Below are positions 3,267-26,219 of a DNA stretch of 26,219 nucleotides, one piece after another. The translations under genes were made by a program, and so were the position numbers. Each line of letters begins with the position of its first letter. Position 1 is the stretch's first letter. The DNA comes from Acidobacteriota bacterium (GTDB taxonomy: Bacteria; Acidobacteriota; UBA6911; JACQSX01). Where the stretch lies: the NCBI GenBank assembly GCA_036507075.1, contig DASXQR010000217.1, forward strand, positions 1 to 26,219. Direction: 5' to 3'. Below the pieces are notes generated by a model, which saw only the letters and a list, made by a program, of their open reading frames with translations, did no database searches and was not told where the DNA came from.

Positions 3267-3271
3267 GAGGT

Positions 3272-3583
3272 CTATCTTTTCTTCACCAGCCGCAATGAGC
3301 CTTTTGCCGGGACTTTCTTTTTGCTCTTGGAAGGATTGGCTTTCTCCAGCCTGTGAAATTCAAAATCGAGCGATTTGAGACGCAGCATTTCCAGGAGCTT
3401 GCGCACTGCTTCGTCGGTGCGCTCGCGAAGCTCCAGCGACGTCACTCGGAAATGCTTTGCGATCCAGGGCACCGGCTTCTTGGGAAAGCCGCCAAAACCG
3501 TAGCGGTACATGAGCATCTGCGCCATTTCGCGGTCGTCTTTGAGGAGCTTGTAGAAGGCCTGCTCGATTCCGGTCATCGGCAT
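3272..3583 (-). CDS. Small protein resembling a stand-alone sigma70 region 4 HTH domain
   Basis: Starts immediately after the aminotransferase stop and ends 5 nt before the next gene. REMAQMLMYRYGF...IAKHFRVT...DEAVRKL resembles the RpoD region 4 pattern. Basic C-terminal tail. Confidence 0.6.
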   Translation of the reverse strand: MPMTGIEQAFYKLLKDDREMAQMLMYRYGFGGFPKKPVPWIAKHFRVTSLELRERTDEAVRKLLEMLRLKSLDFEFHRLEKANPSKSKKKVPAKGSLRLVKKR

Positions 3584-4777: not shown

Positions 4778-4841
4778 GAGACCCTTTCGACGCAACTATT
4801 CTAGCATGTGGTAGTCGTGACGTTTCGCAGCTCGATTCCTG

Positions 4842-4969: not shown

Positions 4970-4975
4970 TATAAT
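4970..4975 (+). promoter_or_regulatory. Possible -10 box for the MoxR/vWA operon
   Basis: TATAAT ~78 nt upstream of ATG 5053. The -35 box is poor. Confidence 0.3.
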
Positions 4976-5052
4976 TGTCAGCAATTAGAATATCCCGGGA
5001 AGCGAGAACCCTTCCTTGCCCCCTGAGGAACAACCGGTTTGGCGGAAATAGG

Positions 5053-7326: not shown

Positions 7327-7349
7327 CTGGAGGCGGAATCCTGATTCTG

Positions 7350-8378: not shown

Positions 8379-10930
8379 GCCGCAGGTCTGCCTTATTCAC
8401 CACAAAGACACAAAGAACACAAAGGTCTTCGTGTCCTTTGTGTCTTTGTGGTTATCTTTTCACTGCACTTCTGTGCAGCTTTCCCTTGATCTCCTGCGCG
8501 CAGGCCCAGAGTCTCCCTCAGGCGATCCAGATCTGGCAAAAGGGTGACTACAAGGGCGCCGAGACAACGCTCGCGTCACTTTCTCAAAAGGGCGATCTGT
8601 CCGCCCGCGTCGCGTACTGCCGGCTGCTGAGAGAAACAGGCCGGTACTCGGACGCCGAAGCCGCCGCCCGAGGCGCCAGTAATGCGGAGCTGAAACTGGA
8701 ATTCTCATACGCCCTTCGCTCGCAGGGCAAGTACGCGGAAGCCGAGAAAGTAATCGCTGATGTGTCGCTGCCGGAGGCGCGATTCGCCCTGGCCGAATTG
8801 CTCGCCCGGCGCGGTGAGGCGGCGCGGGCTGTCGAACTTCACCGCCTGGTGACCCGCGAGGCGCGCGGGCGGCCCGGCTCGCTGGCGGCGGCTCGATCAC
8901 TGCAACGGCTGAAAGACTTCCACGCCTCCAATTCGTTGTTTCAGGATTTGGAAGAAAAGTATCCTCAGGACATCGATATCAAGCTCGCCTGGGCAGAGTT
9001 GTTCCTGGAAAAGTACAACGCCTCGGAAGCCGCCGGCCTGTACCAGGAGATTCTGAAAGAAAATTCCGGCCATCCGGAGGCTCTGGCGGGTATGGCGCAG
9101 TGTGCCGGCGACAGTTCTGACCCCAAGGTAAACGAGTTGCTGGACCGCGCGCTGAAGACGAACGCCAATCTGATCGATGTTTTTCAGATTCGCGCCCGGA
9201 GATTCATTGAAGATGAAAGGTACGACGCCGCGGCCGCCCAACTGGACCTGGCGGAAAAGATCGACGCTCAGGACTTGAAGAACTGGGCCTTGCGCGGCGC
9301 GCTCGCTTACTTCCGGCAGCAGGACCCCCAGGCCTCTTTCAGAAAAATCGACGAAGTAAATCCGCATGACGGCCAGGCCTGGCTGCAACTGGGACAGCTT
9401 TGCGTTTCGCGCAAGCGCTTTGACAAGGCGATCGAGTTCTTCAGGAACGCGATTGGCCGGGATCCGGAACTGTGGCAGGCGCACGCGGATCTGGGGATAA
9501 ATCTTCTTCGACTGGGGGCCGAGCGCGAGGGCAAGGACGCACTGGAGAAGGCGTATGCGGGAGATCCGTTTCATGTCTGGACGGTCAACACTTTGCGTCT
9601 CCTGGATACTTTCAAGTACTACCACGAAAGCCGGACGGCCCATTTTCGTCTTCTGATTCACAGCAAGGAGGAAGTGCTGCGCGACCTGGCCGAGGAACTG
9701 CTGGAGCAAAGCTATCAGGCGTTCAAAGAGCGTTACGGATTCTCGCCGGCTTTTCAGACCAGCATTGAGTTCTATCCCAATCATGAGGATTTCGCAGTGC
9801 GCACGCTGGGGGTTCCGGGTTTGGGCGCGTTGGGGGCGGCCTTTGGTAAAGTGGTGGCGCTTGATTCGCCGATGGCCCGGAAGCGGGGCGAGTACAACTG
9901 GGCAAGTACTCTGTGGCACGAGGTGGCGCACATCTTCACGCTTAATCTTTCCGACATGAAGGTGCCGCGCTGGCTTACGGAAGGTTTGTCCACTTACGAG
10001 GAACGTCTGGCGCATCCAGGCTGGGGAAGGAAGATAGATCCGATGCTTGTCCAGGCGGCGGAAAAGAAACTGCTGCTGCCGCTGAAGGAGCTCAGCGTCG
10101 GGTTTTTACATCCGCAATTTCCCGAACAGATCCTGATCAGTTACACGCAGTCGTCGTTTGTCTGCCAGTTTTTGGCGGAGCGTTATGGCTGGGAAAAAAT
10201 CCGGCAACTGCTGCAGGCCTTCCGTGAGAAAAACGAAACGGATGCCCTTAAGGCCGTTTACGGAAAATCACTTGATGACCTTGATGCCGAGTTTAGAAGT
10301 TATCTCGAGCCGCTGATCTCGAAAGTGGCGGGGCAGTTGGACAAAAGTTCCAGCAGCGAGTATTCCAGACTGCTGCGTGAGGCCGACGAACATCTAAAGA
10401 ATAATGAGTGGGGAAAGGCCGCGCCGCTGCTGCGCCGCGCCGCAGAGCTGGATCCGGAACCGCGTTATCCATTTAACGTCTGGTTCAGGCTGGCACAGGC
10501 GGAAGAAAAGCTGGGCCGCCAAAAAGAGGCGATGGAAGCCTATATGAACGCGGGCAGGCTGTCAGAAGCGGGCGAAGAAGCCTACCAGCGGGCTTTTGAT
10601 CTGGCGCTGCAGCAAAACAGGCAGGACGTTGCCTCGGCTGCCTACCAGAGCCTGATGTGCATTTATCCCGCGAATTCAGAGCTGAATGTCGCTATGGGTG
10701 AGGCATGGTTGAAATGGAACCAGCCCGAGCGGGCTGTTGCTCCGCTTGCGCGCGCTACTCGAATCTCGTCGGCCGACCCGGCGCAGAGCCACTATCTGCT
10801 GGCGCGAGCGTATTTCCTGTCGGGAAAGCGTGAGCTGGCAAAAAAGGCGGTGCTGGCCGCGCTCGATGTTGCTCCCAGCTTTGAAAAAGCGCAGCAGTTG
10901 CTGTTGCAGATTGCGGAGGGACGCCAATGA
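8375..10930 (+). CDS. Exported TPR-repeat protein with a central peptidase MA/gluzincin-like zinc domain
   Basis: TTG start overlaps the upstream TGA and has an AAGGGAGA SD. Many TPR-like helices. HEVAH (9917-9931) followed 16 residues later by the E of WLTEG. Confidence 0.85.
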   Translation: MSRRSALFTTKTQRTQRSSCPLCLCGYLFTALLCSFPLISCAQAQSLPQAIQIWQKGDYKGAETTLASLSQKGDLSARVAYCRLLRETGRYSDAEAAARGASNAELKLEFSYALRSQGKYAEAEKVIADVSLPEARFALAELLARRGEAARAVELHRLVTREARGRPGSLAAARSLQRLKDFHASNSLFQDLEEKYPQDIDIKLAWAELFLEKYNASEAAGLYQEILKENSGHPEALAGMAQCAGDSSDPKVNELLDRALKTNANLIDVFQIRARRFIEDERYDAAAAQLDLAEKIDAQDLKNWALRGALAYFRQQDPQASFRKIDEVNPHDGQAWLQLGQLCVSRKRFDKAIEFFRNAIGRDPELWQAHADLGINLLRLGAEREGKDALEKAYAGDPFHVWTVNTLRLLDTFKYYHESRTAHFRLLIHSKEEVLRDLAEELLEQSYQAFKERYGFSPAFQTSIEFYPNHEDFAVRTLGVPGLGALGAAFGKVVALDSPMARKRGEYNWASTLWHEVAHIFTLNLSDMKVPRWLTEGLSTYEERLAHPGWGRKIDPMLVQAAEKKLLLPLKELSVGFLHPQFPEQILISYTQSSFVCQFLAERYGWEKIRQLLQAFREKNETDALKAVYGKSLDDLDAEFRSYLEPLISKVAGQLDKSSSSEYSRLLREADEHLKNNEWGKAAPLLRRAAELDPEPRYPFNVWFRLAQAEEKLGRQKEAMEAYMNAGRLSEAGEEAYQRAFDLALQQNRQDVASAAYQSLMCIYPANSELNVAMGEAWLKWNQPERAVAPLARATRISSADPAQSHYLLARAYFLSGKRELAKKAVLAALDVAPSFEKAQQLLLQIAEGRQ
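8399..8452. repeat. 54-bp palindromic CACAAAGA-type repeat element within the 5' end of the TPR gene
   Basis: ACCACAAAGACACAAAGAACACAAAG-GT-CTTCGTGTCCTTTGTGTCTTTGTGGT, with 24 of 26 positions complementary. Confidence 0.9.
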
Positions 10931-11697
10931 CGCGCGCGCTGCGACGAATTTGCGGGCGGCTCACAGGGCGACTGACAATATCGGCCGTTGTCCTGGTTCT
11001 TTTGACCTCGATTTTCCCCCACATCCACACGGGGGCGGACCGGGTGAACCGTTTCCATCCCAGCGACTTTCATTTTGCGAGGATACGTTTTCGCACTCTC
11101 GATTACTCGAATTATTTTCCCCAAATGCCTCCATGGGCACACGACTATCCGAGAGCGGATCGCAATTTCCTGAAAATCCTGGCTGAGGTCACACAGATTC
11201 GATGCGACAGCGAGTCCTACCAGCTGGTGTCGCTGGAAAACGATGAAATCTTCAAGTATCCGTGGGCCTACATGTGCGAGGTAGGATACATGGATTTGAC
11301 CGACAAGGAGGCGGCCACGCTGCGGGCGTATCTGGATCGCGGAGGGTTCGTTGTGGTGGACGATTTTCGCGGCGCGCGTGAATGGAATAATTTCACCCGC
11401 AACATGCGGAAAGTTTACCCCGACCGCGGTTTTCAAGAGCTGGAATTGAATCACCCGGTGTTCCAGTGCTTCTACAGCATTAAGACTTTGGACTTTGTCC
11501 CGCCCTACGACGAGTTTCTAAAAGTCCACTTTCTCGGGATGAGCGACGAAAAGGGACGGCTGCAGATGATCGCAAATTTCAACAACGACATAGGCGAGTA
11601 CTGGGAATGGTCCGACACCGAGTGGGTCCCCTTGAATCTTTCTAATGAGGCCTACAAGTTCGGCGTTAACTATGTGATGTATGCGCTAACACATTAA
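10927..11697 (+). CDS. DUF4159 family protein
   Basis: Motifs WAHDYPRADRNF, YPWAYMCEVG, LRAYLDRGGFVVVDDF, HPVFQCFY, NNDIGEYWE and GVNYVMYALTH. ATGA-coupled to the TPR gene. Confidence 0.85.
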   Translation: MTRALRRICGRLTGRLTISAVVLVLLTSIFPHIHTGADRVNRFHPSDFHFARIRFRTLDYSNYFPQMPPWAHDYPRADRNFLKILAEVTQIRCDSESYQLVSLENDEIFKYPWAYMCEVGYMDLTDKEAATLRAYLDRGGFVVVDDFRGAREWNNFTRNMRKVYPDRGFQELELNHPVFQCFYSIKTLDFVPPYDEFLKVHFLGMSDEKGRLQMIANFNNDIGEYWEWSDTEWVPLNLSNEAYKFGVNYVMYALTH

Positions 11698-11701
11698 AAA
11701 C

Positions 11702-11789
11702 AGTCTGAAAGTTGAAAGTCTAAGGTCAAGGGTCTGACTTTCCGGTTTGGACTTTCGACTTTCGACCTTTGACTTTCGACCTTCAGACT
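11702..11789. repeat. Inverted array of 7-bp repeats (GAAAGTC/GACTTTC)
   Basis: AGTCTGAAAGTTGAAAGTCTAAGGTC...GACTTTCGACTTTCGACCTTTGACTTTCGACCTTCAGACT, between DUF4159 and moxR. Confidence 0.85.
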
Positions 11790-11809
11790 TGATTTAGGGG
11801 AGCCTATTC

Positions 11810-12817
11810 ATGGATCAAAAGACAACTGCAGAGTTCGTAGAAAAAACGCACGAAGCGTGCACCCGTGTGCGAAGTGAAGTGGGGCGGATTATCGTCGGCC
11901 AGGAAGATGTGGTCGAACTGGTGCTGATCACGCTGCTGGCCGGGGGACATTCCATCATCACCGGCTTGCCGGGACTGGCAAAAACGCTGTTGATTCAGTG
12001 CCTGGGCCAGACGCTCGGTCTGCGTTTCCAGCGCATTCAGTTCACGCCGGATCTGATGCCTGCCGATATCACCGGCACCGACATTCTGGAAGAAGATCGC
12101 GAAACAGGACGGAGAGCCATGCGCTTTGTGCGCGGACCGGTTTTTGCGCATCTGGTGCTAGCCGACGAGATTAACCGCACTCCGCCAAAGACGCAGGCTG
12201 CCCTGCTGGAGGCGATGCAGGAACGGCACGTAACGGTACGCGGTCAGACTTACAATCTGGAACCTCCCTTCTTTGTGCTGGCCACGCAAAACCCCATCGA
12301 GCTGGAAGGAACTTATGCGCTGCCGGAAGCGCAGCTCGATCGGTTCATGTTTAACATCCTGATTCATTATCCGTCCGAGCGAGAGGAAATCGACGTGGTC
12401 AAAAACACAACTGCCGCTCCGCAGCAGGGCCTGGAAGCTGTATTACATCGGGAAGATCTTCTCCGAATCCAGGAACTGACCCGGCTCGTCCCGGTGGCCG
12501 ACGACCTGGTCAGTTATGCGGTTCAGATGGTGCGTCGCACAAGGCCGGGCGATTCGGCGGCCGACTACGTCAACCGTTGGGTAAGTTACGGAGCCAGCCC
12601 CAGAGCCGCTCAGTATCTGATTCTGGGGGCCAAGGCGCGGGCGCTTTTGCGCGGCAGATACAATGTCGCGCTGGAAGATATCCGAGCTCTGGCGGCTCCG
12701 GTTCTGCGGCATAGAATCCTGCTGAACTTCCATGCCGAATCTGAGCAGGTAACCACAGACCAGATCGTGGACAAGCTGCTGGCCAATCTTCACCAGGTCA
12801 AATCCGGGTTGGGTTAA
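11810..12817 (+). CDS. moxR: MoxR-family AAA+ ATPase
   Basis: Walker A GLPGLAKT, RIQFTPDLMPADITG, Walker B LADEINR, LLEAMQE, ATQNPIE, PEAQLDRF and GASPRA. RBS GGGGAG. Confidence 0.95.
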   Translation: MDQKTTAEFVEKTHEACTRVRSEVGRIIVGQEDVVELVLITLLAGGHSIITGLPGLAKTLLIQCLGQTLGLRFQRIQFTPDLMPADITGTDILEEDRETGRRAMRFVRGPVFAHLVLADEINRTPPKTQAALLEAMQERHVTVRGQTYNLEPPFFVLATQNPIELEGTYALPEAQLDRFMFNILIHYPSEREEIDVVKNTTAAPQQGLEAVLHREDLLRIQELTRLVPVADDLVSYAVQMVRRTRPGDSAADYVNRWVSYGASPRAAQYLILGAKARALLRGRYNVALEDIRALAAPVLRHRILLNFHAESEQVTTDQIVDKLLANLHQVKSGLG

Positions 12818-12824
12818 TGACGGT

Positions 12825-12886
12825 CTTTGTGTGCTTTGTGCCTTTGTAGTGGTTTCTGTTTACCACAAAGACACAAAGGCACGGAG
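12825..12886. repeat. Second CACAAAGA-type palindromic element with arms in the opposite order
   Basis: CTTTGTGTGCTTTGTGCCTTTGTAGTGG...ACCACAAAGACACAAAGGCAC. The 17-mer ACCACAAAGACACAAAG is identical at 8399 and 12862. Confidence 0.85.
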
Positions 12887-12896
12887 TTTGAAGGTT

Positions 12897-13883
12897 ATGG
12901 ATTTGTTGAAATTTCTCAACCGCGGCGAAAAGAATCCGCAGCCGCAGGCCGGCAAGGTCGAGCCCTCTCCGCGCCGCGTCCGCTACGCAGGCGCCCAACA
13001 ATCTTTTATCGACCCCACCGTGCTGCAGATGCTTTCTAATCTTCAACTGGTTGCCAAAGTCGTGGTGGAAGGGTTTCTGTCCGGATTGCATCGCTCTCCC
13101 TACCACGGTTTCAGCGTTGACTTTGCCGAGTACCGCGAGTACAGCGAAGGAGACGATCTGCGAACGGTCGACTGGAATGTCTTCGCCCGCAGCGACCGCT
13201 ACTATGTCAAAAAATATGAAGGGGAGACCAACACAGCGCTGCATTTCCTGCTGGACGTGAGCGGATCGATGAGCTACGGCTCCGGCAGCGTAAGCAAGCT
13301 GGATTACGCCCGTTTCCTGGTTGCATCTCTGGCCTACTTCGCTTCCCGGCAAAAGGATGCCGTCGGCCTTTACATTTTTGACCAGCAGATTCGAGAGTTT
13401 CTGCCGCCTCGCCTCCGGCGCACGCATATGCACCAGTTCCTGACGCTTTTGAAGACTGCCAAGGCGGCGGGAACCACCGGATGGAACCGGCCGCTGGAAA
13501 GGGTGGCTCAACTGGCGTCGCGTCGCGGAATGATCGTTATGGTGTCGGATTTCTACAGTGACCTGGAAGATCTGTTTCGCGGCGCCAGGTTCTTTCAGTC
13601 GCGCGGCAATGAAGTGATTCTGTTCCAGGTGCTGGATCCGTACGAGCTGGAATTCCCGTTTGAAGGTCCGGTGCTGCTCGAGGACGTGGAAACGGAGGAT
13701 CGCGTGATGGTGGTTCCCCAGGCCACGCGCAAGGCTTATCTGGAGAATTTCCAGCAGCATCAGGAGAGGCTGCGTGAAGGCGCCGCCACCGCCGGAATAG
13801 ATTACAAGGTGGTACGCACGGATCAGCCGCTCGATGAAACACTTTTACACTACTTAAAAGCAAGGCACCGGAGAATTAAGTGA
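12897..13883 (+). CDS. DUF58 family vWA-like protein (MoxR partner)
   Basis: Motifs GLHRSPYHGFSVDFAEYREYSEGDDLRTVDW, KYEGET, LLDVSGSM, VSDF and QVLDPYE. Start placed at ATG 12897 after an AAGG SD. Confidence 0.92.
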   Translation: MDLLKFLNRGEKNPQPQAGKVEPSPRRVRYAGAQQSFIDPTVLQMLSNLQLVAKVVVEGFLSGLHRSPYHGFSVDFAEYREYSEGDDLRTVDWNVFARSDRYYVKKYEGETNTALHFLLDVSGSMSYGSGSVSKLDYARFLVASLAYFASRQKDAVGLYIFDQQIREFLPPRLRRTHMHQFLTLLKTAKAAGTTGWNRPLERVAQLASRRGMIVMVSDFYSDLEDLFRGARFFQSRGNEVILFQVLDPYELEFPFEGPVLLEDVETEDRVMVVPQATRKAYLENFQQHQERLREGAATAGIDYKVVRTDQPLDETLLHYLKARHRRIK

Positions 13884-13990
13884 CGAATGACGAGTGTCGA
13901 ATGACGAATGACGAATTGAAAATTGCAAATCCGGAACTCGTAACTCGAAACCCGACACTCGTAACTCGACACGCGTAACTCGACACTCGT
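13880..13990. repeat. Array of 7-bp repeats, (ACGAATG)n followed by (ACTCGTA/ACTCGAC)n, an imperfect inverted pair
   Basis: GTGACGAATGACGAGTGTCGAATGACGAATGACGAA...AACTCGTAACTCGAAACCCGACACTCGTAACTCGACACGCGTAACTCGACACTCGT, directly abutting ATG 13991. Confidence 0.85.
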
Positions 13991-15967
13991 ATGAATTTTC
14001 TGACGCCGATATTTCTGGCCGGGTTGGCAGCGATCGCCGTGCCGATTTGGTTTCACCTGATTCGCAGGGAGCAATCCTCGCGCGTGCCTTTCAGTTCGGT
14101 GATGTATGTGCCGCGAAAAGAGATGCGCCAGGTGCGCCGCCAGAAACTGCGGCAATGGCCGCTATGCCTCTTGCGGCTACTGCTGATTATGCTCCTGGTT
14201 CTGGCGCTGTCGCGCCCTTACTGGCCTGAACTGTCGGCAGGCTGGTCTTCCGGTTCGCAGGCCCGAGTGGTTTTGCTGGACAATTCCTTCAGCGTGCGCG
14301 CCGGGAATCGGTGGTTGCAGGCGAAACAACTGGCTGAGCGCGAAGTTCGCTCCGCGCCGGCCGGGAGTGAAGTATCACTGGCACTGGTTTCTGATCGTGT
14401 CGAGTTTCTCGGCGGCCCGCCCGAACCTGTCGAGACAATGCTGAGCAAGCTGCGCCAGGCCGAGCCATCTTACCGCGCCACGCGCCTGGATCAGGGCATC
14501 CGCGCCGCGGGTGACATGTTGAAACAATCACGCATGGTCACACGCGAGATTGTGCTGATTTCCGATTTTCAAAAAAACGGTCTGTACACGTCGTCCTGGA
14601 ACATCCCTGAAGGAATCGGTTTAAGGACTCATTCGCTCCCGGAATCCGCCGGCAACCTGTTTATCGAAGATGTCCAGGCGCCGCGAGAGATGTATGAGAA
14701 ATCGCCGCGCGAAGATATCAAGGTGCAGTTGCGAAATAACACTCCCTCGGAAGCGAAAACCCTGCGTCTGGTTCTCAAAATCCAGGATTTGCCCGAGGTG
14801 TCACAGGTGGTATCGATTCCTGCCTTCAGGTCCAGAACAGCCTCGTTCCAGGCGCCGGAGATAAAAGACGCATCCGTGGTCAAATGCGAGGCCCGGCTGG
14901 AGGCGGCCGATGCGATTGCGGATGACAATCGGTTTTATTTCACAATGCGCCGGCGCGACAAAGTTCCCGTAATCCTGGCCGCCAGCGGCCCGGCTGCAAC
15001 ATTTCTCGGCCAGGCGCTCAATTCCGAGGGTCTGCCCTGGACGGTGAAAGCAGGCTTGACAGAGGAGTGGCTGCGCAAATCAAAGGCGCTGATCCTGCAC
15101 GATCCCATCGAGATTCCGCAGTTTGTGGCAAGCTGGGTTAAAGGCGGGGGTGGATTGCTGATTTTTTCAGGCCCGCAAGGAGATTCGCTCAGATCTGATC
15201 TGCTGCCCGTAAAGCCGCAGGAAAACCGGATCGCGCGGCGCGGCCGCGATCAAGGCATGCAGTTGGACGACGTGCAATGGCAGCACCCTGCGTTCGCCCC
15301 TTTCGCGGATCAGCAGAAGCGATATTTTGCATCGGTGCATTTTTACGGATATACGGCCGCCTCCGCGCTGCCCGATACAAAAATTTTGGCACGCTTTGAT
15401 TCAGACAACCCTGTCCTGGTTGAAAGAAGTTACGGTCGCGGTAAGGTTCTCTGGTTTGCCAGCAGCGTGTCCAACGAATGGAATGACTTTGCGCTGCGCC
15501 CGGCATTTTTGCCCTTCGTGCAGCAGGTAACAGCCTACCTGGCGGGTCTCCGCAAATCCCTTGGCGCGCCGCGAGTGGGAGCGCGCGTGGATCTGTCCGC
15601 GTGGGGCGAAGGAGAAGTTACGCCCATTGATCCCAGGGGGCGGAGGGTAGAGACGGTTTCCAACAGCAGCCTGCTGGATGTGGAGCTTCCCGGTTTCTAT
15701 GAAATTCGGTTTAATCGGACCAGTGATTTTCTGAGCGTCAATATTCCCGCATCGGAGTCGATTCTCGATTCCGAGCCCGTTCAGCAAATTCAGGCACGGG
15801 CAGGCCGCATTCGCGCCAGCGTGGCGCAGGTCTCGGCCGCGACTGCAGAGCACCGCCAGAGCTGGTGGAGAGTATTACTGCTGTTGGCGGCGTTGCTGCT
15901 GCTCGGAGAGTGGGTGCTGGCGGACCTGTATTACGGGCGGATTCAACGCCTTAGGAAGGCCTCCTAG
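13991..15967 (+). CDS. BatA-domain / vWA / GATase-like double-TM membrane protein
   Basis: BatA N-terminus MNFLTPIFLAGLAAIAVPIWFHLI...PFSS...LLRLLLIMLLVLALSRP. MIDAS DNSFS...T...ISDFQ. YGRGKV and WNDFALRPAFLP motifs. C-terminal TM ending LLGEW. Confidence 0.85.
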   Translation: MNFLTPIFLAGLAAIAVPIWFHLIRREQSSRVPFSSVMYVPRKEMRQVRRQKLRQWPLCLLRLLLIMLLVLALSRPYWPELSAGWSSGSQARVVLLDNSFSVRAGNRWLQAKQLAEREVRSAPAGSEVSLALVSDRVEFLGGPPEPVETMLSKLRQAEPSYRATRLDQGIRAAGDMLKQSRMVTREIVLISDFQKNGLYTSSWNIPEGIGLRTHSLPESAGNLFIEDVQAPREMYEKSPREDIKVQLRNNTPSEAKTLRLVLKIQDLPEVSQVVSIPAFRSRTASFQAPEIKDASVVKCEARLEAADAIADDNRFYFTMRRRDKVPVILAASGPAATFLGQALNSEGLPWTVKAGLTEEWLRKSKALILHDPIEIPQFVASWVKGGGGLLIFSGPQGDSLRSDLLPVKPQENRIARRGRDQGMQLDDVQWQHPAFAPFADQQKRYFASVHFYGYTAASALPDTKILARFDSDNPVLVERSYGRGKVLWFASSVSNEWNDFALRPAFLPFVQQVTAYLAGLRKSLGAPRVGARVDLSAWGEGEVTPIDPRGRRVETVSNSSLLDVELPGFYEIRFNRTSDFLSVNIPASESILDSEPVQQIQARAGRIRASVAQVSAATAEHRQSWWRVLLLLAALLLLGEWVLADLYYGRIQRLRKAS

Positions 15968-16016
15968 TTCAGAACACGTTTTTCTGGAGAGTGTTGCAGT
16001 ATACTCGGTAGGACTT

Positions 16017-16488
16017 GGGTTGGCGGGTTCCCGGGTAATCGGTTACGGGTTTCCGGGTTGTCGGGTTCCCGGGTTATCGGGTTCCGGGTTTATCGGGTTC
16101 TCGGGTTCCGGGTTCTCGGGTTCCGGGTTACGAGTTCGCGGGTTACGAGTTAAGAGTTCCGGGTTACGAGTTACGAAATGATGAGAATTGGCGCTAATCC
16201 ATTTATGAGTCTTGTCAACTTTAAAATTCCAGGTTCGTTCGCCGAAACACCGTCCCTGATAACCCGTAACCCGATAACCCGTAACTCGATAACCCGTAAC
16301 TCGATAACCCGAAACCCGATAACCCGTAACCCGGTAACCCGTAACCCGATAACCTGTAACCCGATAACCCGTAACCCGATAACCCGTAACCCGATAACCC
16401 GTAACCCGATAACCCGAAACCCGAAAACCCGTAACCCGAAAACCCGAAGCCCGATAACCCGAAACCCGATAACCCGTGACCCGATAAC
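16017..16488. repeat. Large inverted tandem-repeat element: (GGGTT-rich)n, ~80-bp spacer, then 15 x ATAACCCGTAACCCG
   Basis: The left arm (~16017-16175) is built from CGGGTT/CGAGTTA units. The right arm (16259-16488) is 15 copies of a 15-bp unit, the reverse complement of the left-arm motif. No unique spacers between units. Confidence 0.92.
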
Positions 16489-16503
16489 TGGGATTGGTGA
16501 ACT

Positions 16504-19500
16504 ATGAAATGGAAAAGCTCGCGCCGATACTCCAACGCCATTGAGGCTTTTCTCGACCCTGTCCGTTTAGCGCTTCAGAGGCAGAGGGCGGGAAGAGCGG
16601 GCCTGTTTTCCGTTGTAGTGCTGTGCGCCGCCCTGGTGGGTTCCTCGTGGGCCCTGTACCTGGTCGATTTCGAGTCCCGATTTCTCTCTGCCGCCCGGTT
16701 CGTCCTGGTGCTGGCGCTGCTGGCGGCTGTAGCGCTCATTATTCTTGCATGGAGAAAGCCCCTTGAGTTGCTGCGCGTTTCCCGCTACCTGGAAGAGCGC
16801 AACCCGCAATTGCAGCAGCGGCTTCTTACCGCCGTGCAAGTGAGCCGGGATCCGGCGCATCCTCTGTGGCCGTTTCTTGAAAAGGACGCGCTCCGATCGG
16901 CGCGTTCGGTCAAGCCCGCTTCCGCTTTGCGCGCTCAGCGCCACTGGATTACGGCGGCTGCCGTGGCGGTGCTTGCCGCATTGCTTATCTTTGTCAGCGG
17001 ACCGTCGTTCTTCCGCTATGGCTTGCAAAAGCTTTTTGCCTTCGACAATGCGTCCAGGCCGCTGTATGAGATTACCGTTTCTCCCGGTAACGCCCGCATT
17101 GCGCCCGGGATGGATCAGGAAATTCAGGCGCAACTGAGCGGTTTTGATTCGGCGCACGTGAACGTTCACTTCCGATTTGCCAACCAGACTCAATGGGAAT
17201 CGGCGGCGATGGAGCGCGCCCGCTCGGGCAACGCCTTCAGCAAGTTGATGCTGGATATCCGCGAGACTATGGAGTATTACGTGGAGGCGGAAAAAATCCG
17301 CTCGCCCCTGTATCGCATCGACGTGGCCGATTCGGCCCGCGTTCGGAAAATCGCGCTGCATTATTTCTATCCTGCATACACCGGCCTGAAGCCAAGAACG
17401 TTCGAGGACACCGGGGACATCGAGGCGCTGGTGGGGACGCGCGTGCGGGTTGAGGTGGAGTTTAACGAAGAACCGCAGAAACCGGAGATCCTGCTTGAGG
17501 GGAAGCGTGAAGCCGTCGCCCTGACCGCTGCGGGTAACAAGTCCTTCAGCGGCGAGGTCACCGTCAGGAAGGACGATCGTTATTGGGTGCGCACCAGCTC
17601 GCCGGCGGGCGAAACCCGCAGCAGCTCCATTTATGACATTACCGCCCTTGACGACCGGGCGCCGGTCATCCGATTTACCCGGCCGGGCCGGGATCAGAAA
17701 GTCTCCAGGCTGGAAGAAGTGATAACGCAGCTGGAAGCGGAGGATGACTATGGCCTCAATTCCGTTCAGCTCAATTATTCGGTGAACGGAGGCAAGGAAA
17801 AATCCATCACGCTTTTTGGTCCGGGCAGCGTCAGGCAGCTCACCAAAGACCACACTTTCTACCTGGAAGAAATGAATGTGCAGCCCGGAGACTTCGTCTC
17901 CTACTATGGCCAGGCGCGCGATGCCGTCAATCTGGCCAAGACCGACATTTATTTTCTGGAAGTAAAGCCGTTTGATCGCGAGTTTTACCAGAACCAGCAG
18001 GCAGGAGCAGGAGGGGCAGGAGGCCAGCGCGAGGACATGATGCTCTCGCGGCGCCAGAAAGAAATTATCGCCGGAACCTGGAAGATCTCACAGAACAGCA
18101 AGCGTAACCCGGACCGCGACGGCCGCGCAGATCCGCAGGAGCGGGCTGAAAACTTCCGCACCCTCGCTTTGGTGCAACAGCGTTTGCAGCAGCAAGCCGA
18201 AACCATCGTCGGTCGCCTGGCGCGGCGCAATGTGGGGAGGGACGACCTTGCGCGCCAGATGATGGAAAGCCTGCAGGAAGCGGCCAGGCTGATGGAGCCG
18301 GCGCATCAGAGTCTTTCCAAGGAGCGGGCATCCGAGGCCATGACCTATGAGCAGCAGGCGCTGCAGAAACTGCTTCGCGCAGAGGCCTTGATGAAGGAGA
18401 TCCAGGTGTCGTGGACGTCGGGATCTGCGGGCGGTTCGGGCGGCGACAGTCGCGCAGAAGAGCTGGCGGACCTGTTTGAGCTGGAACGCGACCAGATGAA
18501 GAACCAATACGAGACCCTGCAGCAAAGCCAGCCGGGCCAGCAGAAAGATCCCAAGGTCGACGAAGCACTGCAGAAGCTGAAGGAATTGGCGCGCCGCCAG
18601 CAGGAGATGCAGCGTAACTTTAACGCCGCGCAGCAGCAGCGCCTGCAGCAGGAGACCGACGAGATAGCGCGGCAACTGGAGCGCCTCTCGCGCCAGCGCC
18701 AGAATCAGCGCCTTGAGGACACAGCCAACCAGTTGCGGGAAGCTTCGCGCAGCATGCAGAACGGCAACCAGGGTCAGGGAAACTCGCCTTCCAGCAGCCG
18801 CGCGCTGGATCAACTGCGTCGCGCACAGTCTCAGCTTTCCAATCTTCAGAATCAGCAGCAGCAGAAGCAGTTCTCGCAGCTCAGCCAGACGGCGGAAAAT
18901 CTGGTGCGGCAGCAGCAGGAAATTGAGGATCGTGTCTCTTCGATACAGGAGCAGTTGCAGCGGCAGGGACGCGTCAACAATCGCCTGTTGGGCGGTTTAT
19001 TCACCGACAAGCAGGCCGTTCGCGACCAGCTGAAGAATCTCGAAAAGGAATTGGACGAGGCGGCGCGTCGCACGGCGTCAACGGAGCGCAAGGCTTCGCA
19101 GGATCTGAAGGCTGCTGCCAATGAGATTCGCGATCGGCGCATTGCCGACAAGATCGAGCAGGGCACTTCACTGTTCAGCCGCGGCCTGTTCGACCAGGCC
19201 AGGCAGCGCGAGCACTCCACCACACAGGAACTGCGTGAAGTGCAAAGCATGATTGAAAAAGCGCAGCAGGATGCCGGCGCCGGCCGGCCCGGGGATGACA
19301 AGAGCGCCGGTTCGCGGCTGCAGCGCGCGCTCGAACAGACCGGGCGGCTGCTGGATCAACTGGAACAGATGGAAAAGCAGCAGGCCGGCGGACAAGCGGG
19401 CGAACGTGGAGGCAGGCAGCGCGCGTCCCGTGATGACGGCAATGACCGCTCCGGCGACCAGCAGTCCCCAGATCAAAACGGCAGAGCTTCGGATAATCAA

Positions 19501-20157
19501 CGGAACGACAGAAGCCAGAACGGGCAGCAGCAGGGGAATCAGCAGGGACAACAGCAAGGACAGCAGGCCCAGCAGCAGGGAAGGCAGAGACAACAGGGGC
19601 AGGGACAAAAGGGGCAGGGACAGCAGGGACAGCAGGCCGGCCAGCAGCAAGGGGGCAGACAGTCGTCGTCAGGCACTCGAGGGTCTGATGACCGGCAGCC
19701 GGGTCAGTCGGAAGGTGGCGTGACCGAGTACGCCGGTTCCTTCACCGGCCCGAATAACGGCATCCGGCCGAGGCAGCGGCTGGGCGCCGACGAAAGGGCG
19801 TGGCGTGAATTCTGGAACGAGCGTCTCGACGAGGCTCGCAACATCCGCCGTGAGTTGTCCGGCGACAAAGAATTGGGCCGCAACATCGATCAATTGCTGG
19901 AGCGCATGATTCAGTTGGACCGGCAGCGCTTGCTGAACGACGCGGCAGAAATCTCCAATCTGCGAGCCGGCATCATCCAGGGCTTCAAGTCGCTGGAACT
20001 GAAGATGAGCCTCCGGGTACAGGGCGGCAAAGAAGGTTTCCACCTGTTCAATCCCGATGACGTTCCGCTCGAGTATCGGAAGGCGGTTGAGGAGTATTAC
20101 AAGACACTGGCGCGAAGCGGTTCCCGCAAGAACTCCGTCCCTGAGCGCCAGCCGTGA
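16504..20157 (+). CDS. Large DUF4175-like membrane protein with Ig-like domains, long Q-rich coiled coils and G/Q low-complexity tail
   Basis: Three N-terminal TMs and LQQRLLTAV. DRAPVIRFTRPGRD, AEDDYGL and PGDFVSYY motifs. Extensive Q/E/R heptads. C-terminal VPLEYRKAVEEYYKTLA. Confidence 0.8.
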   Translation: MKWKSSRRYSNAIEAFLDPVRLALQRQRAGRAGLFSVVVLCAALVGSSWALYLVDFESRFLSAARFVLVLALLAAVALIILAWRKPLELLRVSRYLEERNPQLQQRLLTAVQVSRDPAHPLWPFLEKDALRSARSVKPASALRAQRHWITAAAVAVLAALLIFVSGPSFFRYGLQKLFAFDNASRPLYEITVSPGNARIAPGMDQEIQAQLSGFDSAHVNVHFRFANQTQWESAAMERARSGNAFSKLMLDIRETMEYYVEAEKIRSPLYRIDVADSARVRKIALHYFYPAYTGLKPRTFEDTGDIEALVGTRVRVEVEFNEEPQKPEILLEGKREAVALTAAGNKSFSGEVTVRKDDRYWVRTSSPAGETRSSSIYDITALDDRAPVIRFTRPGRDQKVSRLEEVITQLEAEDDYGLNSVQLNYSVNGGKEKSITLFGPGSVRQLTKDHTFYLEEMNVQPGDFVSYYGQARDAVNLAKTDIYFLEVKPFDREFYQNQQAGAGGAGGQREDMMLSRRQKEIIAGTWKISQNSKRNPDRDGRADPQERAENFRTLALVQQRLQQQAETIVGRLARRNVGRDDLARQMMESLQEAARLMEPAHQSLSKERASEAMTYEQQALQKLLRAEALMKEIQVSWTSGSAGGSGGDSRAEELADLFELERDQMKNQYETLQQSQPGQQKDPKVDEALQKLKELARRQQEMQRNFNAAQQQRLQQETDEIARQLERLSRQRQNQRLEDTANQLREASRSMQNGNQGQGNSPSSSRALDQLRRAQSQLSNLQNQQQQKQFSQLSQTAENLVRQQQEIEDRVSSIQEQLQRQGRVNNRLLGGLFTDKQAVRDQLKNLEKELDEAARRTASTERKASQDLKAAANEIRDRRIADKIEQGTSLFSRGLFDQARQREHSTTQELREVQSMIEKAQQDAGAGRPGDDKSAGSRLQRALEQTGRLLDQLEQMEKQQAGGQAGERGGRQRASRDDGNDRSGDQQSPDQNGRASDNQRNDRSQNGQQQGNQQGQQQGQQAQQQGRQRQQGQGQKGQGQQGQQAGQQQGGRQSSSGTRGSDDRQPGQSEGGVTEYAGSFTGPNNGIRPRQRLGADERAWREFWNERLDEARNIRRELSGDKELGRNIDQLLERMIQLDRQRLLNDAAEISNLRAGIIQGFKSLELKMSLRVQGGKEGFHLFNPDDVPLEYRKAVEEYYKTLARSGSRKNSVPERQP

Positions 20158-21806: not shown

Positions 21807-22574
21807 ATGCGTCGCGTTTTCTTCTCCTTTCTCCTCGCCACTCTTGTGTGCCCTCTTTCCCGGGGCCAGTCTTCGTCGAGCTTCGATTCGGTCTATAGTT
21901 CCGTGATAGCCCGGCACGGGCCGGCGGTCACGCAGGCGGTCAACGCAAAATTAGACGGAACGATCACCTACCCGCAGACTGCCGCATCGGGCTTTACGCT
22001 GACGCTGCAGAATCGCCAACTCCGGTTCGATCTCTCCAGCGCGGAAGGCCTGTCGGTCGTTCGGGACGCTGACTTGGCGCAGGCTACACGCGCCGGGACC
22101 AAACGTCATTTCGCCGACCGGTCGCCGCTTTATATATCGGGGATGAATCTCGGGCCGGTCCTGGCGTTGCTCTATTTTTACAACGATGCCGCATATGCGC
22201 GAAGTCTGGTGGCGGGAACGAGTGGGACCAACATTTTGCGTTTTACCGAGACTCTTCCGGCCGGGTCGGTTGAGCCGCCGTTATTTCGCCAGCCAAAGCT
22301 TGTGGTGTCGTTTCTTGTGGCTGGCAGCAACGAGATTCAGAGCATCTCCTACGAGGATACCCAACAGACGTTTTTGCCCGTCGTGTACACCTACCTGTAC
22401 GTGGACAGCGTGACGACCCCCTTCCTGCAGCCCAAGAACCTCGTCTGCCAATCCGGCTCCCAAGTTGTCTACTCCGCACACGTGACTTCGGCGCAGTTGA
22501 ACGTGACGGTTCCTGCCAACTTCTTTCGGATCGTTGTTCCCCTCGCCGAAATTCTTGCACATTTTAGAGCTTAA
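21807..22574 (+). CDS. Exported beta-rich hypothetical protein (LolA/lipoprotein-sorting-like), C-terminus replaced by transposon sequence
   Basis: Signal peptide MRRVFFSFLLATLVCPLSRG. The ending AQLNVTVPANFF resembles the N-x5-F ending of LolA-fold proteins. The last 12 codons and the stop lie inside the transposon left end. Confidence 0.55.
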   Translation: MRRVFFSFLLATLVCPLSRGQSSSSFDSVYSSVIARHGPAVTQAVNAKLDGTITYPQTAASGFTLTLQNRQLRFDLSSAEGLSVVRDADLAQATRAGTKRHFADRSPLYISGMNLGPVLALLYFYNDAAYARSLVAGTSGTNILRFTETLPAGSVEPPLFRQPKLVVSFLVAGSNEIQSISYEDTQQTFLPVVYTYLYVDSVTTPFLQPKNLVCQSGSQVVYSAHVTSAQLNVTVPANFFRIVVPLAEILAHFRA

Positions 22575-22599
22575 ATTAGTAGAGTAAATCGCTCCTCCT
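22535..22599 (+). repeat. Left terminal inverted repeat
   Basis: TGTTCCCCTCGCCGAAATTCTTGCACATTTTAGAGCTTAAATTAGTAGAGTAAATCGCTCCTCCT. Confidence 0.8.
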
Positions 22600-22629
22600 T
22601 AACCGGGCCAAAAGCCCAAAGGAGGAACG

Positions 22630-24078
22630 ATGACCGAAGAGGTCAAGCAACAACAGGATCCCACCGAAAGTATCGCAGGTCCAGCAGAACCAACGCCGGT
22701 CAAGGCGGTCGGATCGTACCAGCAGGACAGCGGTCCACAGTCAGAACCGGTAGCTGAGCAGCAGGCCGCCGACGAGGTCGTGGATTTGCTCGACGAGCTG
22801 CCGAGACTTCCATGCCTGTCGGGGGGCCGAGCAAGAACTCGGCGCCTGGTGGTCAAAGAGCAGAACATCAGCGGCAAAGCACTTGGTCCGGAGCAGCGCC
22901 TGCTGCTGTTGGACACGTGGCGGCGCAGCGGGCTGTCCGGGGGTGAGTTTGAAGCACTGGTGGGCATCTCCAAGCACACGCTGTACGCCTGGAAGCAGCG
23001 GTTTGAGCGGGACGGACCGGCCGGTCTGATGCCAAGACAGCGCGAAAGCAGACGCGCCAGCCGTCTGGCGCAGGCCACGCAGCGGGCCATTCTAATGCTC
23101 AAGGCCGACAATCCCGACTGGGGATGCCAGCGCATCAGCGACGTGCTGGCTCGCGCCTCCGGTCTTGGGGCCAGCGCCGCCTCGGTGGCCTATGTCCTGA
23201 AAGAGGCCGGATACCAATGTGAAGAGATTGCAACCCGGGCGCATGCCGAACCGGTCGTCCGACGCTTTGAAGGAGTCAAGTGCAACAGCCTGTGGCAGAC
23301 CGATATTTTTACCTTTGTGCTCAAGCGCCAGAACCGGCGCGTGCATCTGGTGGCCTTCATGGACGATCACAGTCGATTCATTGTCAGCTTTGGTCTGCAT
23401 GCCACCGCCTCGACGGCTCTGGTCATTGAAGTCTTCCGTTCTGCCATTGCCAGTTTTACTGCGCCCGAAGAGATTCTCACCGACAACGGACCTCAGTACG
23501 TGACCTGGCGCGGCAAGAGCGCTTTCGGCAAAGAGTGCGAGGCGCGCGGGGTGCGCCAGATTGTGGCCCGTGTGCGCCATCCACAGACTCTGGGCAAGAT
23601 TGAACGCTTCTGGGGCACACTGTGGCGTGAATGCCTGCAGTCGGCCGTCTTTATTGACTTGGAGGATGCGCGGCGAAGAATCGGCCACTTTATCGACTAC
23701 TACAACTTTCAACGCCCGCATCAGGGAATCGATGGACTGGTGCCGGCGGATCGTTACTTTGGCGCCGCCAGTCAGGTGCGCGAGATGCTGCAGGTGCGCG
23801 TAGCTGAAAACGCGCTCAGCCTGGCCACCAACGGCATCCCCAAAGAGCCGTTTTACCTGACCGGTCAGGTGGCGGGCAAAAACTTCAGCCTGCATACCGA
23901 AGGCGAGCGCGTTATCCTGACCACCCCAGAGGGTCAGCGCCGGGAGATCAATTTACAGGGACCTGCTGATTGGCCTTCCAGCGCCCAGGCGCCTGCTGAT
24001 CAACCCGCTGATGGTGGTAGCCAGCAACAGACCGATCCGAACTTTGCGCTTGACGGCGATAAAGGAGAGCCGCTATGA
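22630..24078 (+). CDS. DDE transposase 1 (IS481-like, rve integrase core)
   Basis: RBS GGAGG at 22621-22625. HTH VGISKHTLYAWKQRF...GPAGL and NPDWGCQRIS. Triad WQTD, LTDNGPQY, GKIERFW. YNFQRPHQGIDGLVP. Beta-rich C-terminal domain. Confidence 0.92.
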   Translation: MTEEVKQQQDPTESIAGPAEPTPVKAVGSYQQDSGPQSEPVAEQQAADEVVDLLDELPRLPCLSGGRARTRRLVVKEQNISGKALGPEQRLLLLDTWRRSGLSGGEFEALVGISKHTLYAWKQRFERDGPAGLMPRQRESRRASRLAQATQRAILMLKADNPDWGCQRISDVLARASGLGASAASVAYVLKEAGYQCEEIATRAHAEPVVRRFEGVKCNSLWQTDIFTFVLKRQNRRVHLVAFMDDHSRFIVSFGLHATASTALVIEVFRSAIASFTAPEEILTDNGPQYVTWRGKSAFGKECEARGVRQIVARVRHPQTLGKIERFWGTLWRECLQSAVFIDLEDARRRIGHFIDYYNFQRPHQGIDGLVPADRYFGAASQVREMLQVRVAENALSLATNGIPKEPFYLTGQVAGKNFSLHTEGERVILTTPEGQRREINLQGPADWPSSAQAPADQPADGGSQQQTDPNFALDGDKGEPL

Positions 24079-24575
24079 CAAACCAAAACCGCAAAGATAA
24101 AGACAGGGCCGGTGCCAAGCGCTCGGCAGGTCCTCGGATTCAAGGAGACGACAGCCAGGCACGGCGGATCGCGACGGCGATTTTGGAGGTCCTGGGTGGG
24201 GAACGCACCCCCACTCAGGCTGCCCAGGCGTTAGGTATATCGGTAATGCACTACTACCATCTCGAGAGCCGCGCTCTGGCAGCTTTTGTCACTGGCTGCC
24301 AAAGTCGCGCCAAAGGGAGAACTAAATCGCCACACCAGCAGCTTCATCAACTGAGCAGGCAGCTGGAAAAGCTCAAACTGGAGTGCGCGCGCAAAAGCGC
24401 GCTGCTGCGAGCCGCCCGGCAGGCTGTGGGCCTGGCGCCACCGCTGGCCGATAAGACCGGCAAGCGGCGGCGGCGTCCTACAGTGCGGGCATTGAGAGCG
24501 GCGTGCCGGCTGCAAACAGAATCGCAAACAGAAAACTCCCATGCTGCAGCAATAAGTGATCCAGGAGGTAGCTGA
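24075..24575 (+). CDS. HTH plus coiled-coil accessory protein A
   Basis: ATGA overlap with transposase 1. HTH ILEVLGGERTPTQAAQALGISVMHYYHLE, then GR, then heptads LHQLSRQLEKLKLE. Confidence 0.8.
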   Translation: MTNQNRKDKDRAGAKRSAGPRIQGDDSQARRIATAILEVLGGERTPTQAAQALGISVMHYYHLESRALAAFVTGCQSRAKGRTKSPHQQLHQLSRQLEKLKLECARKSALLRAARQAVGLAPPLADKTGKRRRRPTVRALRAACRLQTESQTENSHAAAISDPGGS

Positions 24576-25066
24576 TGACAAAAGGAAGGCCCCCGTTGGG
24601 ACCACATCTGGTCGAGCGAATGGCCGGGTCAGATCTGGCCCGCCAACGTCTGCAAACGATTTTGCAAACCATTGCCGGCCAGCTGAGCGTGCCACAAGCT
24701 TGCCGCCAGTTGAGCATTGGCGAGGCGGCGTTCTATAAGCTGCGCTCACAGGTCTTGCAGTCGGCTCTGCAGAGCCTGGAACCGGCCGCGGTGGGCCGAC
24801 CACGCCAGGCGACTGATCAGGATCCTGAGGTTGGCAGGCTGCAACAAGAGGTCACGCAGTTGCGCATCGATCTGCGCGCCTCGCAGATTCGGGAAGAGAT
24901 CGCTCTGCTCATGCCCCATCTTTTGAAGGATCGAAAAGCGAAACTAAAAAAAACGAAACTGAAAATCAACCAGTACTTCCCGGAACAGATATCCCAAGAC
25001 GATCCCCCGTCTGCCGCCGGCAAGCGCGGCTGGTGGCGTGGTTGGGGCAGGCGTGGCGGGCAATAA
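24575..25066 (+). CDS. HTH plus coiled-coil accessory protein B (IS3 OrfA-like)
   Basis: TGATG overlap, RBS GGAGG. HTH ILQTIAGQLSVPQACRQLSIGEAAFYKLR, then GRP, then heptads VGRLQQEVTQLRIDL. Confidence 0.8.
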   Translation: MTKGRPPLGPHLVERMAGSDLARQRLQTILQTIAGQLSVPQACRQLSIGEAAFYKLRSQVLQSALQSLEPAAVGRPRQATDQDPEVGRLQQEVTQLRIDLRASQIREEIALLMPHLLKDRKAKLKKTKLKINQYFPEQISQDDPPSAAGKRGWWRGWGRRGGQ

Positions 25067-26211
25067 TGATGCAAAAGAAAGAGAACAAAAAAAGCCGCGG
25101 CCTCAAAAACCAACAGATGCGCCGTCACCTCGAGCGCCAGGTGCGCCGTGATGTACTGGTGTTTGCCCGCTGGTTGCTGTGCCACCGCATCAACATTGCC
25201 ACAGCAGCGGAAAAACTCGGGCTTTCGCTGCGAACGCTGCTTTGCTGGCAGCTGCGTTGGAAGACGGATCGATTGGCCGGCCCATCTCGCGGCAGACCCC
25301 AGCAGCGGGCTGACCGCCAGTTGCGCAATGCCATTATCGCTTTGTTTCAGTTGACGGGCCCTGGCATTGGATTACCTGCATTGCAGGAGATCTTCCCCGA
25401 TGTCGCGCGTCGCGAGCTGGAGTCTTTGTTGTATCGCTACCGAAACGTCTACCGCAAACGCAATCAACTGCTCGTCTATGCTCTGCGTTGGCTCAAAACG
25501 GGCTCTGTCTGGGCCCTTGATTTTACCGAGCCTCCCTTGCCTGTCGATGGGATCTACAAGCAGATCCTGGTGGTGCGAGATCTGGCAAGCGGCATGCAGC
25601 TTGCCGCCTTACCCGCACCTGACGGCACCGCTCAAGTTGCTCATGACCTCTTGCTCGCTTTATTTAGAGAACACGGATCCCCGCTTCTGGTCAAATCCGA
25701 TAACGGTAGCCCTTTTATCTGCGCGCAGTTTGCGCAGCTTCTCCAAAGGTTTCAGGTGTTGCATCTGCTCTCCCCGCCCGGTCTGCCCCAATACAATGGA
25801 GCCTGTGAAGCCGGGATTGGTTCCATCAAGACTCGGGCTCATCATCAGTCCGCACGCCATGACCGTCCCGGTCAATGGACCTGCGATGATGTAGAGTCCG
25901 CTCGCCTGATGGCCAATGAAACAGCACGTCCGGCTGGTCTGTATTCTCCTACACCCAGTCAGCAGTGGAGAATGCATCCGACCATGGCGCAGGTTGAGCG
26001 TCTACGTTTTATACATACCGTAAATGATTATCGAACCGAGGTCCGCAAAGAGTTAGGATACTTACCCGAGATCGAACTCGCACCCAAAGATGCAGCCCAT
26101 GTCGATCGCGTCGCCATCACCCGAGCCCTCATAGCGCTCGGTTTACTTGCTCTCAGGAGGAGGCGAATTACTCTACATGTTAACCGCTCTTTTTACGCAA
26201 GAATTAAATGA
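25066..26211 (+). CDS. DDE transposase 2 (rve integrase core, divergent from transposase 1)
   Basis: TAATG overlap with protein B. HTH AAEKLGLSLRTLLCW...RGRP. Triad WALDFT, VKSDNGSPF, PQYNGACE, plus VVRDLASG. The frame is open back to 24817. Confidence 0.88.
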   Translation: MMQKKENKKSRGLKNQQMRRHLERQVRRDVLVFARWLLCHRINIATAAEKLGLSLRTLLCWQLRWKTDRLAGPSRGRPQQRADRQLRNAIIALFQLTGPGIGLPALQEIFPDVARRELESLLYRYRNVYRKRNQLLVYALRWLKTGSVWALDFTEPPLPVDGIYKQILVVRDLASGMQLAALPAPDGTAQVAHDLLLALFREHGSPLLVKSDNGSPFICAQFAQLLQRFQVLHLLSPPGLPQYNGACEAGIGSIKTRAHHQSARHDRPGQWTCDDVESARLMANETARPAGLYSPTPSQQWRMHPTMAQVERLRFIHTVNDYRTEVRKELGYLPEIELAPKDAAHVDRVAITRALIALGLLALRRRRITLHVNRSFYARIK

Positions 26212-26219
26212 GGCCTACA
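26155..26219 (-). repeat. Right terminal inverted repeat
   Basis: Reverse complement reads TGTAGGCCTCATTTAATTCTTGCGTAAAAAGAGCGGTTAACATGTAGAGTAATTCGCCTCCTCCT. Confidence 0.8.

Follow-up and report, generated by a model that had tools for sequence, protein, structure and literature searches.

The stretch of DNA analysed here (the window) is the whole contig DASXQR010000217.1, of 26,219 nucleotides (nt), from an Acidobacteriota bacterium (assembly GCA_036507075.1), and its last 3,685 bp, positions 22535-26219, are occupied by an element in which four open reading frames (ORFs), A, B, C and D in that order, lie between a single pair of TGT...ACA ends. The four ORFs, these ends and the three start/stop overlaps (ATGA at 24075, TGATG at 24573 and TAATG at 25064) had been proposed in an earlier reading made from the letters alone (the sequence-only reading), and all were recovered at the same positions, as were the catalytic triads of two enzymes of the DDE (Asp-Asp-Glu) type. 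The triad of ORF A comprises D225 (23302, WQTD), D285 (23482, TDNG) and E325 (23602, KIER), and that of ORF D comprises D152 (25519, WALD), D212 (25699, SDNG) and E248 (25807, ACE); both proteins match the Pfam domain rve (E 1.5e-16 and 2.3e-10, respectively) and they are only remotely related to each other (BLASTP E 0.004 across 34 amino acids, aa).

ORF A scored 211.5 bits against the IS481 model NF033577, whose cut-off is 224, and its relatives scored 199-231 bits, 4 of 14 reaching that cut-off; the nearest IS481 proteins of plasmids are 29-34% identical to it. ORF D is far from every family model. Its profile pairs D152, D212 and E248 with the D, D and E of the foamy-virus integrase, which we take to be the catalytic residues of that enzyme, and its predicted structure is an integrase fold (predicted local distance difference test, pLDDT, 86.6) with retroviral intasomes as top matches.

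The terminal inverted repeats of about 65 bp reported by the same reading are imperfect yet far beyond chance: their alignment over 65/64 nt has 46 identities at 61 aligned positions and 7 gap positions, and the pair scored 52, compared with 36 at most for 5000 random pairs. The stop codon of ORF D lies within the right repeat. The element stops at the contig end, and its right flank is known from contig C60, which starts with the last 141 nt of the element. The genome of the window (G000) holds one assembled copy, and a Logan contig of run X2 covers exactly 22535-26219, the same 3,685 nt. A promoter and terminator scan gave nothing worth naming beyond shuffled controls, and Rfam gave no match.

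Table 1. Coordinates of the element and of related sites (G, genome; C, contig; L, locus; positions without a prefix are those of the window; HTH, helix-turn-helix)
Feature	Position	Strand	Remarks
Left terminal inverted repeat	22535..22599	+	TGT-N9-CGAAAT outer motif; GTAGAGTAAAT-type inner motif, offset 44
ORF A, IS481-like DDE transposase (HTH + rve)	22630..24078	+	482 aa; family-specific C-terminal extension
ORF B, HTH + coiled-coil protein, paralog of C	24075..24575	+	166 aa
ORF C, OrfA-like HTH protein	24575..25066	+	163 aa; HTH_Tnp_1, IS3 model
A8 run, predicted frameshift/slippage site joining C to the D frame	24946..24953	+	D frame open from 24829
ORF D, second DDE enzyme (HTH + rve + C-terminal helices)	25066..26211	+	381 aa from ATG 25066
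Right terminal inverted repeat	26156..26219	-	TGT-N8 spacing, 1 base shorter than left
Host gene interrupted by the left end shortly before its stop	21807..22534	+	paralog on C22
Right-end/1 bp/left-end junctions	L014:1183-1310; L040:3743-3880; L267:1455-1580		
Distant three-gene subfamily loci	L222-L233, L192, L193		A, one HTH, second DDE ORF in +1 frame
Copy-pair sites	G402:C3 74649-86488; G729:C26 and C44; G404:C7; G401:C26		
RHS, Tle1-like or immunity right flanks	L174:142-522, L014:1807, L028, L033, L059, L080, L132, L234		

Gene order and conservation across the family

At least 1,265 homologs of D were found, and a search admitting E values up to 1e-30 gave 967 protein clusters at the 50% identity level; the named loci belong to Planctomycetota, Acidobacteriota, Myxococcota, Gemmatimonadota and others. 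From an alignment of 108 of the 120 homologs listed, 160 D loci were retrieved (80 kept of 153, plus 80 of 521). A, B and C stand in order ahead of D in 101 of the 112 loci, repeated copies included, that have at least 2,300 nt upstream, as the sequence-only reading had led us to expect, and the ends are shared. The other 11 comprise two scored AB, one BC and eight with none; seven of these eight are 5'-truncated and retain the right end only, and the eighth, L091, is a whole element carrying a 3.6-kb insert. Searched with A, 7 of 401 genomes from the phylum of the window and 35 of 401 from another phylum gave hits. Of the 30 A loci returned, four lack downstream sequence; in each of the other 26, A is followed by an HTH gene, and no A among these 26 stands alone. 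Viral contigs and a locus scan by D alone yielded nothing.

Elements with both ends measure about 3.4-4.8 kb, and four intact ORFs, two of them with DDE triads, are present in 62 of 67 distinct elements. No internal end was detected at 12 bits or more by a profile scan of the 67. The sequence-only reading had argued that the start/stop overlaps leave no room for such ends; their absence stands, and it rests on the profile scan, since across the family the overlap is tight only at A-B (ATGA in 47 of 62) and the B-C spacing is variable. Whole-unit copies number five in G401, three in G402, three in G404 and five in G729, with identities of about 99% in G401, G402 and G729 and of 94-100% in G404. 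Judged from these loci, the element is one mobile unit, and it represents a family rather than nested insertion sequences (IS). The window copy is single in its genome and lies at a contig end, as might be the case for a chance nesting of two known IS or an assembly artefact, an explanation to which we give next to no credence: the four-gene order is kept across many phyla, the whole unit is multicopy and its exact ends recur in a second run, and neither half was found by itself with ends of its own. Chance nesting is refuted by the conserved gene order and the lack of internal ends, unless the loci are mis-assembled.

A distant subfamily comprises 12 of the 30 A loci and two further loci in G323, with A proteins 38-47% identical and elements of 2.8-3.3 kb. 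Their second DDE ORF is present in 11 of 11 loci with room, with D, D and E in 10 of 10 among those listed, and the shared end motif and the 9/8 spacing described below recur in all five elements whose ends were read.

Among homologs, the residues of both triads hardly vary, in agreement with the proposal of two intact DDE enzymes. That of D is complete in 108 of 108 aligned homologs (out of 120 listed), in 149, 150 and 150 of 150 representatives for the D, D and E positions, and in 66 of 66 elements from located loci; the locus search patterns select for the glutamate of D, and the sets of 108 and 150 sequences were not chosen by pattern. In A, D225 and D285 occur without exception (65 of 65 elements) and E325 is kept in at least 95%. 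The ratio of nonsynonymous to synonymous substitutions (dN/dS), which the sequence-only reading had suggested computing, was obtained for 24 independent pairs; in the 12 closest it ranges over 0.04-0.25 in A and 0.14-0.37 in D, values that place both genes under purifying selection. As read from their trees, with 14 of 23 well-supported A splits shared with D, the co-inheritance of A and D is real but loose. Two self-sufficient transposases, derived from an ancient IS481/IS3 fusion, could also redundantly share one pair of ends, as suggested by the resemblance of each half to a known single-enzyme element and by some conflict between the A and D trees. We consider this quite improbable, given that no both-ended derivative missing one enzyme occurs among the 67 elements and that both triads are retained in two subfamilies whose A proteins are only about 40% identical.

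ORF C matches HTH_Tnp_1 (E 4.8e-5) and positions 2-77 of the IS3 model, and its conservation (alignment A2) extends only to about residue 125, the location of a run of A. Such a run (A6-A10), at C residue 105-150 and with the D frame open, is found in 58 of 62 intact elements; the background in the elements is 15 runs of A7 or longer per 140 kb, so that a run of the kind seen at the end of C is rare elsewhere. Relative to C, the frame of D is -1 in 49 elements, +1 in 12 and identical in one, a mixture that suggests slippage on the A-run as in IS1447, an IS3-family element with an A9 run and slippage in both directions according to PMC6211511. In-frame C::D proteins exist naturally (P0038, L046 and 7 of 150 representatives), some of which may be homopolymer read errors, and the junctions A-B and B-C show no frameshift signal of the A-run type. 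Eight D ORFs and two C::D fusions scored 36-81 bits against the IS3 family model, for a cut-off of 160. C and D probably constitute an IS3-like OrfA/OrfB pair, C being the front half of a frameshifted C::D transposase, and D may be made alone as well. ORF B is present in 67 of 67 distinct elements and is under purifying selection; its pairwise similarity to C is weak (E 0.096), and the family profiles of B and C do detect each other. Of the two HTH paralogs that the sequence-only reading regarded as adaptors, the paralogy thus holds by profile, C is probably the OrfA-like front of C::D, and B is a likely regulator or adaptor, itself OrfA-like.

Ends, target sites and a possible insertion mechanism

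The left and right ends carry the same two motifs and differ in spacing, with 9 bases on the left and 8 on the right between TGT and the first motif in 55 of 69 end pairs; the left end is longer by one base (offset +1) in 58 of 67 elements. Loci L039, L042 and L170 were left out of the end set, the ends of G729 were set from a copy alignment, and ends were not located for L248, L250, L251, L192 and L193. A strict end pattern matched 0 of 5 genomes, the pattern being too strict. Three junctions of the right inverted repeat (IRR), 1 bp and the left inverted repeat (IRL), that is ACA-N-TGT, occur in chromosomes and measure about 125 bp each, with no element interior adjoining any of them. The one at L267 was found in 1 of 401 genomes, for 0 in the control, and at L014 and L040 the neighbouring element has no right end behind D. 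At L050, a right end, two bases and another right end follow each other. No free circle was seen in the contigs of four runs. The first step of transposition is probably IS2-like, and the three junctions point to circles of the IS2 kind, because IS2, which has only one transposase, combines a right end of 41 bp and a left end of 42 bp with a junction of 1 bp (PMC3299598).

The enzymes could share the work differently, with one transposase serving both ends and the other acting as a catalytically active helper nuclease, TnsA-like in role but DDE in fold, whose cleavage of the second strand or of the target causes the deletion. A is indeed far more conserved and near the IS481 cut-off, D is far from every model, and two motifs common to both ends are expected for one end-binding protein; on the contrary, D has its own HTH and a fusion with an OrfA-like DNA-binding domain, like a true IS3 transposase, and a helper seems improbable to us.

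Target duplications are at chance level for every length. Among 74 flank pairs, the length was 0 in 48, 1 in 18, 2 in 6, 3 in 1 and 4 in 1, for 50.6, 15.8, 5.7, 1.4 and 0.4 expected from mismatched flanks. Similarly, lengths were those of chance in 21 copies drawn from six genomes that carry several copies and have long contigs, which make chimeric joins less likely (long reads being deduced from contig size), and copies 99-100% identical to each other have no common duplication length. A single 4-base match, at chance level, was obtained when duplications split between copies of one genome were sought over six genomes. Long imperfect duplications were represented among the 74 by partial repeats only, in L052 and L055, where the last 211 and 284 left-flank bases are found again within the right flank, at a depth of 0.9 and 3.8 kb and with 97% and 83% identity, and are possibly the remains of long duplications.

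The flanks failed to join in 10 of 10 testable cases overall, and were non-contiguous in 7 of 7 with a paralogous empty site. In the window, there is no target duplication, and the paralog on C22 of the host gene cut by the left end continues into a different large ORF and not into the right flank on C60, a continuation of the same empty type being present in runs X2 and X4. At L238, the cut falls behind base 778 of a 1,397-bp repeat, and that half was not found in G729. At L064, the two flanks belong to a single methylase-ATPase operon that lacks about 0.66 kb, as extrapolated from a plasmid homolog. Further genes cut by an end without continuation beyond it were seen by eye. No clear case of a gene continuing across the element was found, most flanks being uninformative, and a Pfam search of 88 flank frames from 30 elements, also mostly uninformative, gave 12 matches and never one family on both sides. 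No usable empty allele was found among 30 relatives of G402, nor the flank protein of L064 in 251 genomes. Copies apparently sit at sites of deleted host DNA. Neither the absence of target duplications throughout the family nor the deletions at insertion sites had been noticed in the sequence-only reading.

We hold the balance to be even as to whether the enzymes take one end each and the element is inserted in place of target DNA. An IS481-like enzyme A, an IS3-like C::D module and a second OrfA-like protein, B, would then make up an autonomous IS family. C::D would be made through slippage or frameshifting at the A-run, and the element may leave the donor by an IS2/IS3-like route with an IRR-1bp-IRL junction. 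The two ends would subsequently be held by different catalytic subunits, in a heteromeric complex such as the sequence-only reading had suggested, perhaps with A on the left and C::D on the right, as one might guess from the order of the genes. Strand transfer at one end would be uncoupled from that at the other, and the two would be directed to separate target positions. The DNA between the hits would be replaced, in place of a duplication of a few bases; its size would be about 0.7 kb in the one measurable case and larger in others. In its full form, this model is that of a replacement transposon in which each DDE enzyme transfers one end to its own target site and duplication is absent by design, a scheme that we advance tentatively and rate somewhat below even.

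The two enzymes could otherwise be specialised by step, C::D making a circle and A integrating it with a short duplication, with very frequent adjacent deletions afterwards eroding one flank of almost every copy. This is consistent with the IS3-like C::D and the 1-bp junctions, with the many truncated remnants and solo ends, with copies having only one flank in common, and with the increase in adjacent deletions caused by a fused OrfAB in IS3 elements (PMC11708052). However, a step-specialised pair is expected to integrate symmetrically with a duplication, and would therefore need near-universal later deletions, which accords poorly with the near-identical copies without a common duplication length and with the lack of an excess of duplications split between copies. 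In the long-term evolution experiment (LTEE), 69 of 69 ordinary IS moves had duplications and 14 deletion-linked moves had none (PMC11708052). We judge step specialisation unlikely, less so than a helper nuclease.

Several observations weigh against one enzyme per end and replacement of the target. The end asymmetry does not require two enzymes, as IS2 has it with one transposase. The empty sites compared are paralogs or homologs and never the true pre-insertion allele, and later adjacent deletions also yield missing duplications according to PMC11708052. L132/L135 and L133/L134 share one flank and not the other, which fits later deletions or chimeric assembly. Matching bases do occur on both sides of some copies, four at L184 and three at L236, both on long contigs, and four in the cross pair L237/L238, all within chance but perhaps real. 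Concerning the enzymes, the remaining 12 of 24 pairs, more distant, reach dN/dS of about 1 with saturated dS; D evolves faster than A (mean identity 42% versus 64%), A and D distances correlate weakly (rho 0.21), and the D tree contradicts 5 of the 23 splits that are well supported for A. As for C::D, a start codon for D is also located after the A-run in 51 of 58 elements, no frameshift stem-loop was seen, and most of the distant three-gene elements have no A-run.

Other arrangements were noticed around the copies. Two copies, in inverted or direct orientation, often share a contig at a distance of 5-80 kb, which suggests local hopping. The 15.5-kb contig C122 of G431 (L265, L266) has both of its ends, which overlap, inside the element, and is either a circle of one element with 11.6 kb of other DNA or two collapsed direct copies. 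An internal rearrangement at L019:2119-2880 placed a left end and C inverted behind D. Genomes with whole copies also contain solo left or right ends that lack element genes (L262, L263, L191 and G402:C3 2609420). At several loci, the right end is directly followed by the 3' portion of an RHS-type, Tle1-like or immunity gene that runs in the orientation of the element; a target preference for RHS is not established, the motif count giving only 2 of 40 right flanks.

In the window, the gene at 21807-22534 is an unannotated gene of secreted type with several paralogs in G000 (C22, C201, C8), one of which is followed by the start of a large ORF of RHS-like appearance without Pfam match. Further upstream lie genes for a fumarase, a flavoprotein, a phosphoesterase and an aminotransferase (83-4795), and an ordinary host operon (4975-20157) encoding vWA/GATase-like, TPR-peptidase, DUF4159, MoxR AAA, DUF58, BatA-vWA and DUF4175 proteins.

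Relation to known elements and significance

IS481 elements encode one transposase gene. The present element has in common with them the TGT...ACA ends and an IS481-like ORF A, and departs from them by three to four genes, a second DDE enzyme, a length of 3.3-4.8 kb and the lack of duplication. By sequence, its C and D match the OrfA/OrfB layout with an A-run of IS3 elements (IS2, IS1447), and IS2 shares with it a right end 1 bp shorter and a 1-bp junction spacer; IS3 elements, on the contrary, have one catalytic domain and duplications of 3-5 bp, and the present element has no duplication and carries enzyme A and the OrfA-like B in addition. Tn7, IS21, Mu and Tn5053 are likewise multi-protein systems, but pair an AAA+ ATPase with one DDE enzyme, and the transposase of Tn7 is heteromeric with a TnsA subunit that is not a DDE enzyme. 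No ATPase family matched ORFs A-D in scans with domain and family models, as the sequence-only reading had stated, and the element is therefore not an IS21, Tn7, Mu or Tn5053 element. RIT elements and Tn554 carry two to three related catalytic genes in an overlapping operon within one element; these are tyrosine recombinases and not DDE enzymes, and the likeness is an analogy only. Duplications of IS481 measure 2-15 bp, mostly 6, and IS1202, which has an IS481-related DDE enzyme and TG...CA ends, has duplications of 5-29 bp (PMC10045372), none being seen at any length here; IS1202 is about 1.5 kb long in one listing (PMC10132070).

No close relative was found among 72,556 plasmids or 50,697 phages. 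The claim that the architecture is undescribed has held so far: no paper describing this element was found, ISfinder/TnCentral, supplements and most subscription papers lying outside the search, and PMC3196728, in its available part, is not about such an element. There is a small chance that the element is already listed somewhere. By its gene number, second DDE enzyme and lack of duplication it falls outside the definitions of IS481 and IS3, and by its lack of an ATPase outside those of IS21 and Tn7; it is apparently a widespread, undescribed bacterial family with two DDE enzymes. The novelty lies at the level of the element family, the enzymes having a known integrase fold and the mechanism being one that we infer.

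To our knowledge, the catalytic subunits of a bacterial DDE element are of a single kind, and a short duplication marks its insertion. A large family in which two active sites are retained and duplications are never seen would represent a new transposition architecture, in which the roles of the two ends could be separated genetically, and it may provide a possible starting point for insert-and-delete genome tools. Annotation tools split the element into two unrelated transposases. For the soil and sediment bacteria that carry it, the family may be a source of gene-sized deletions.

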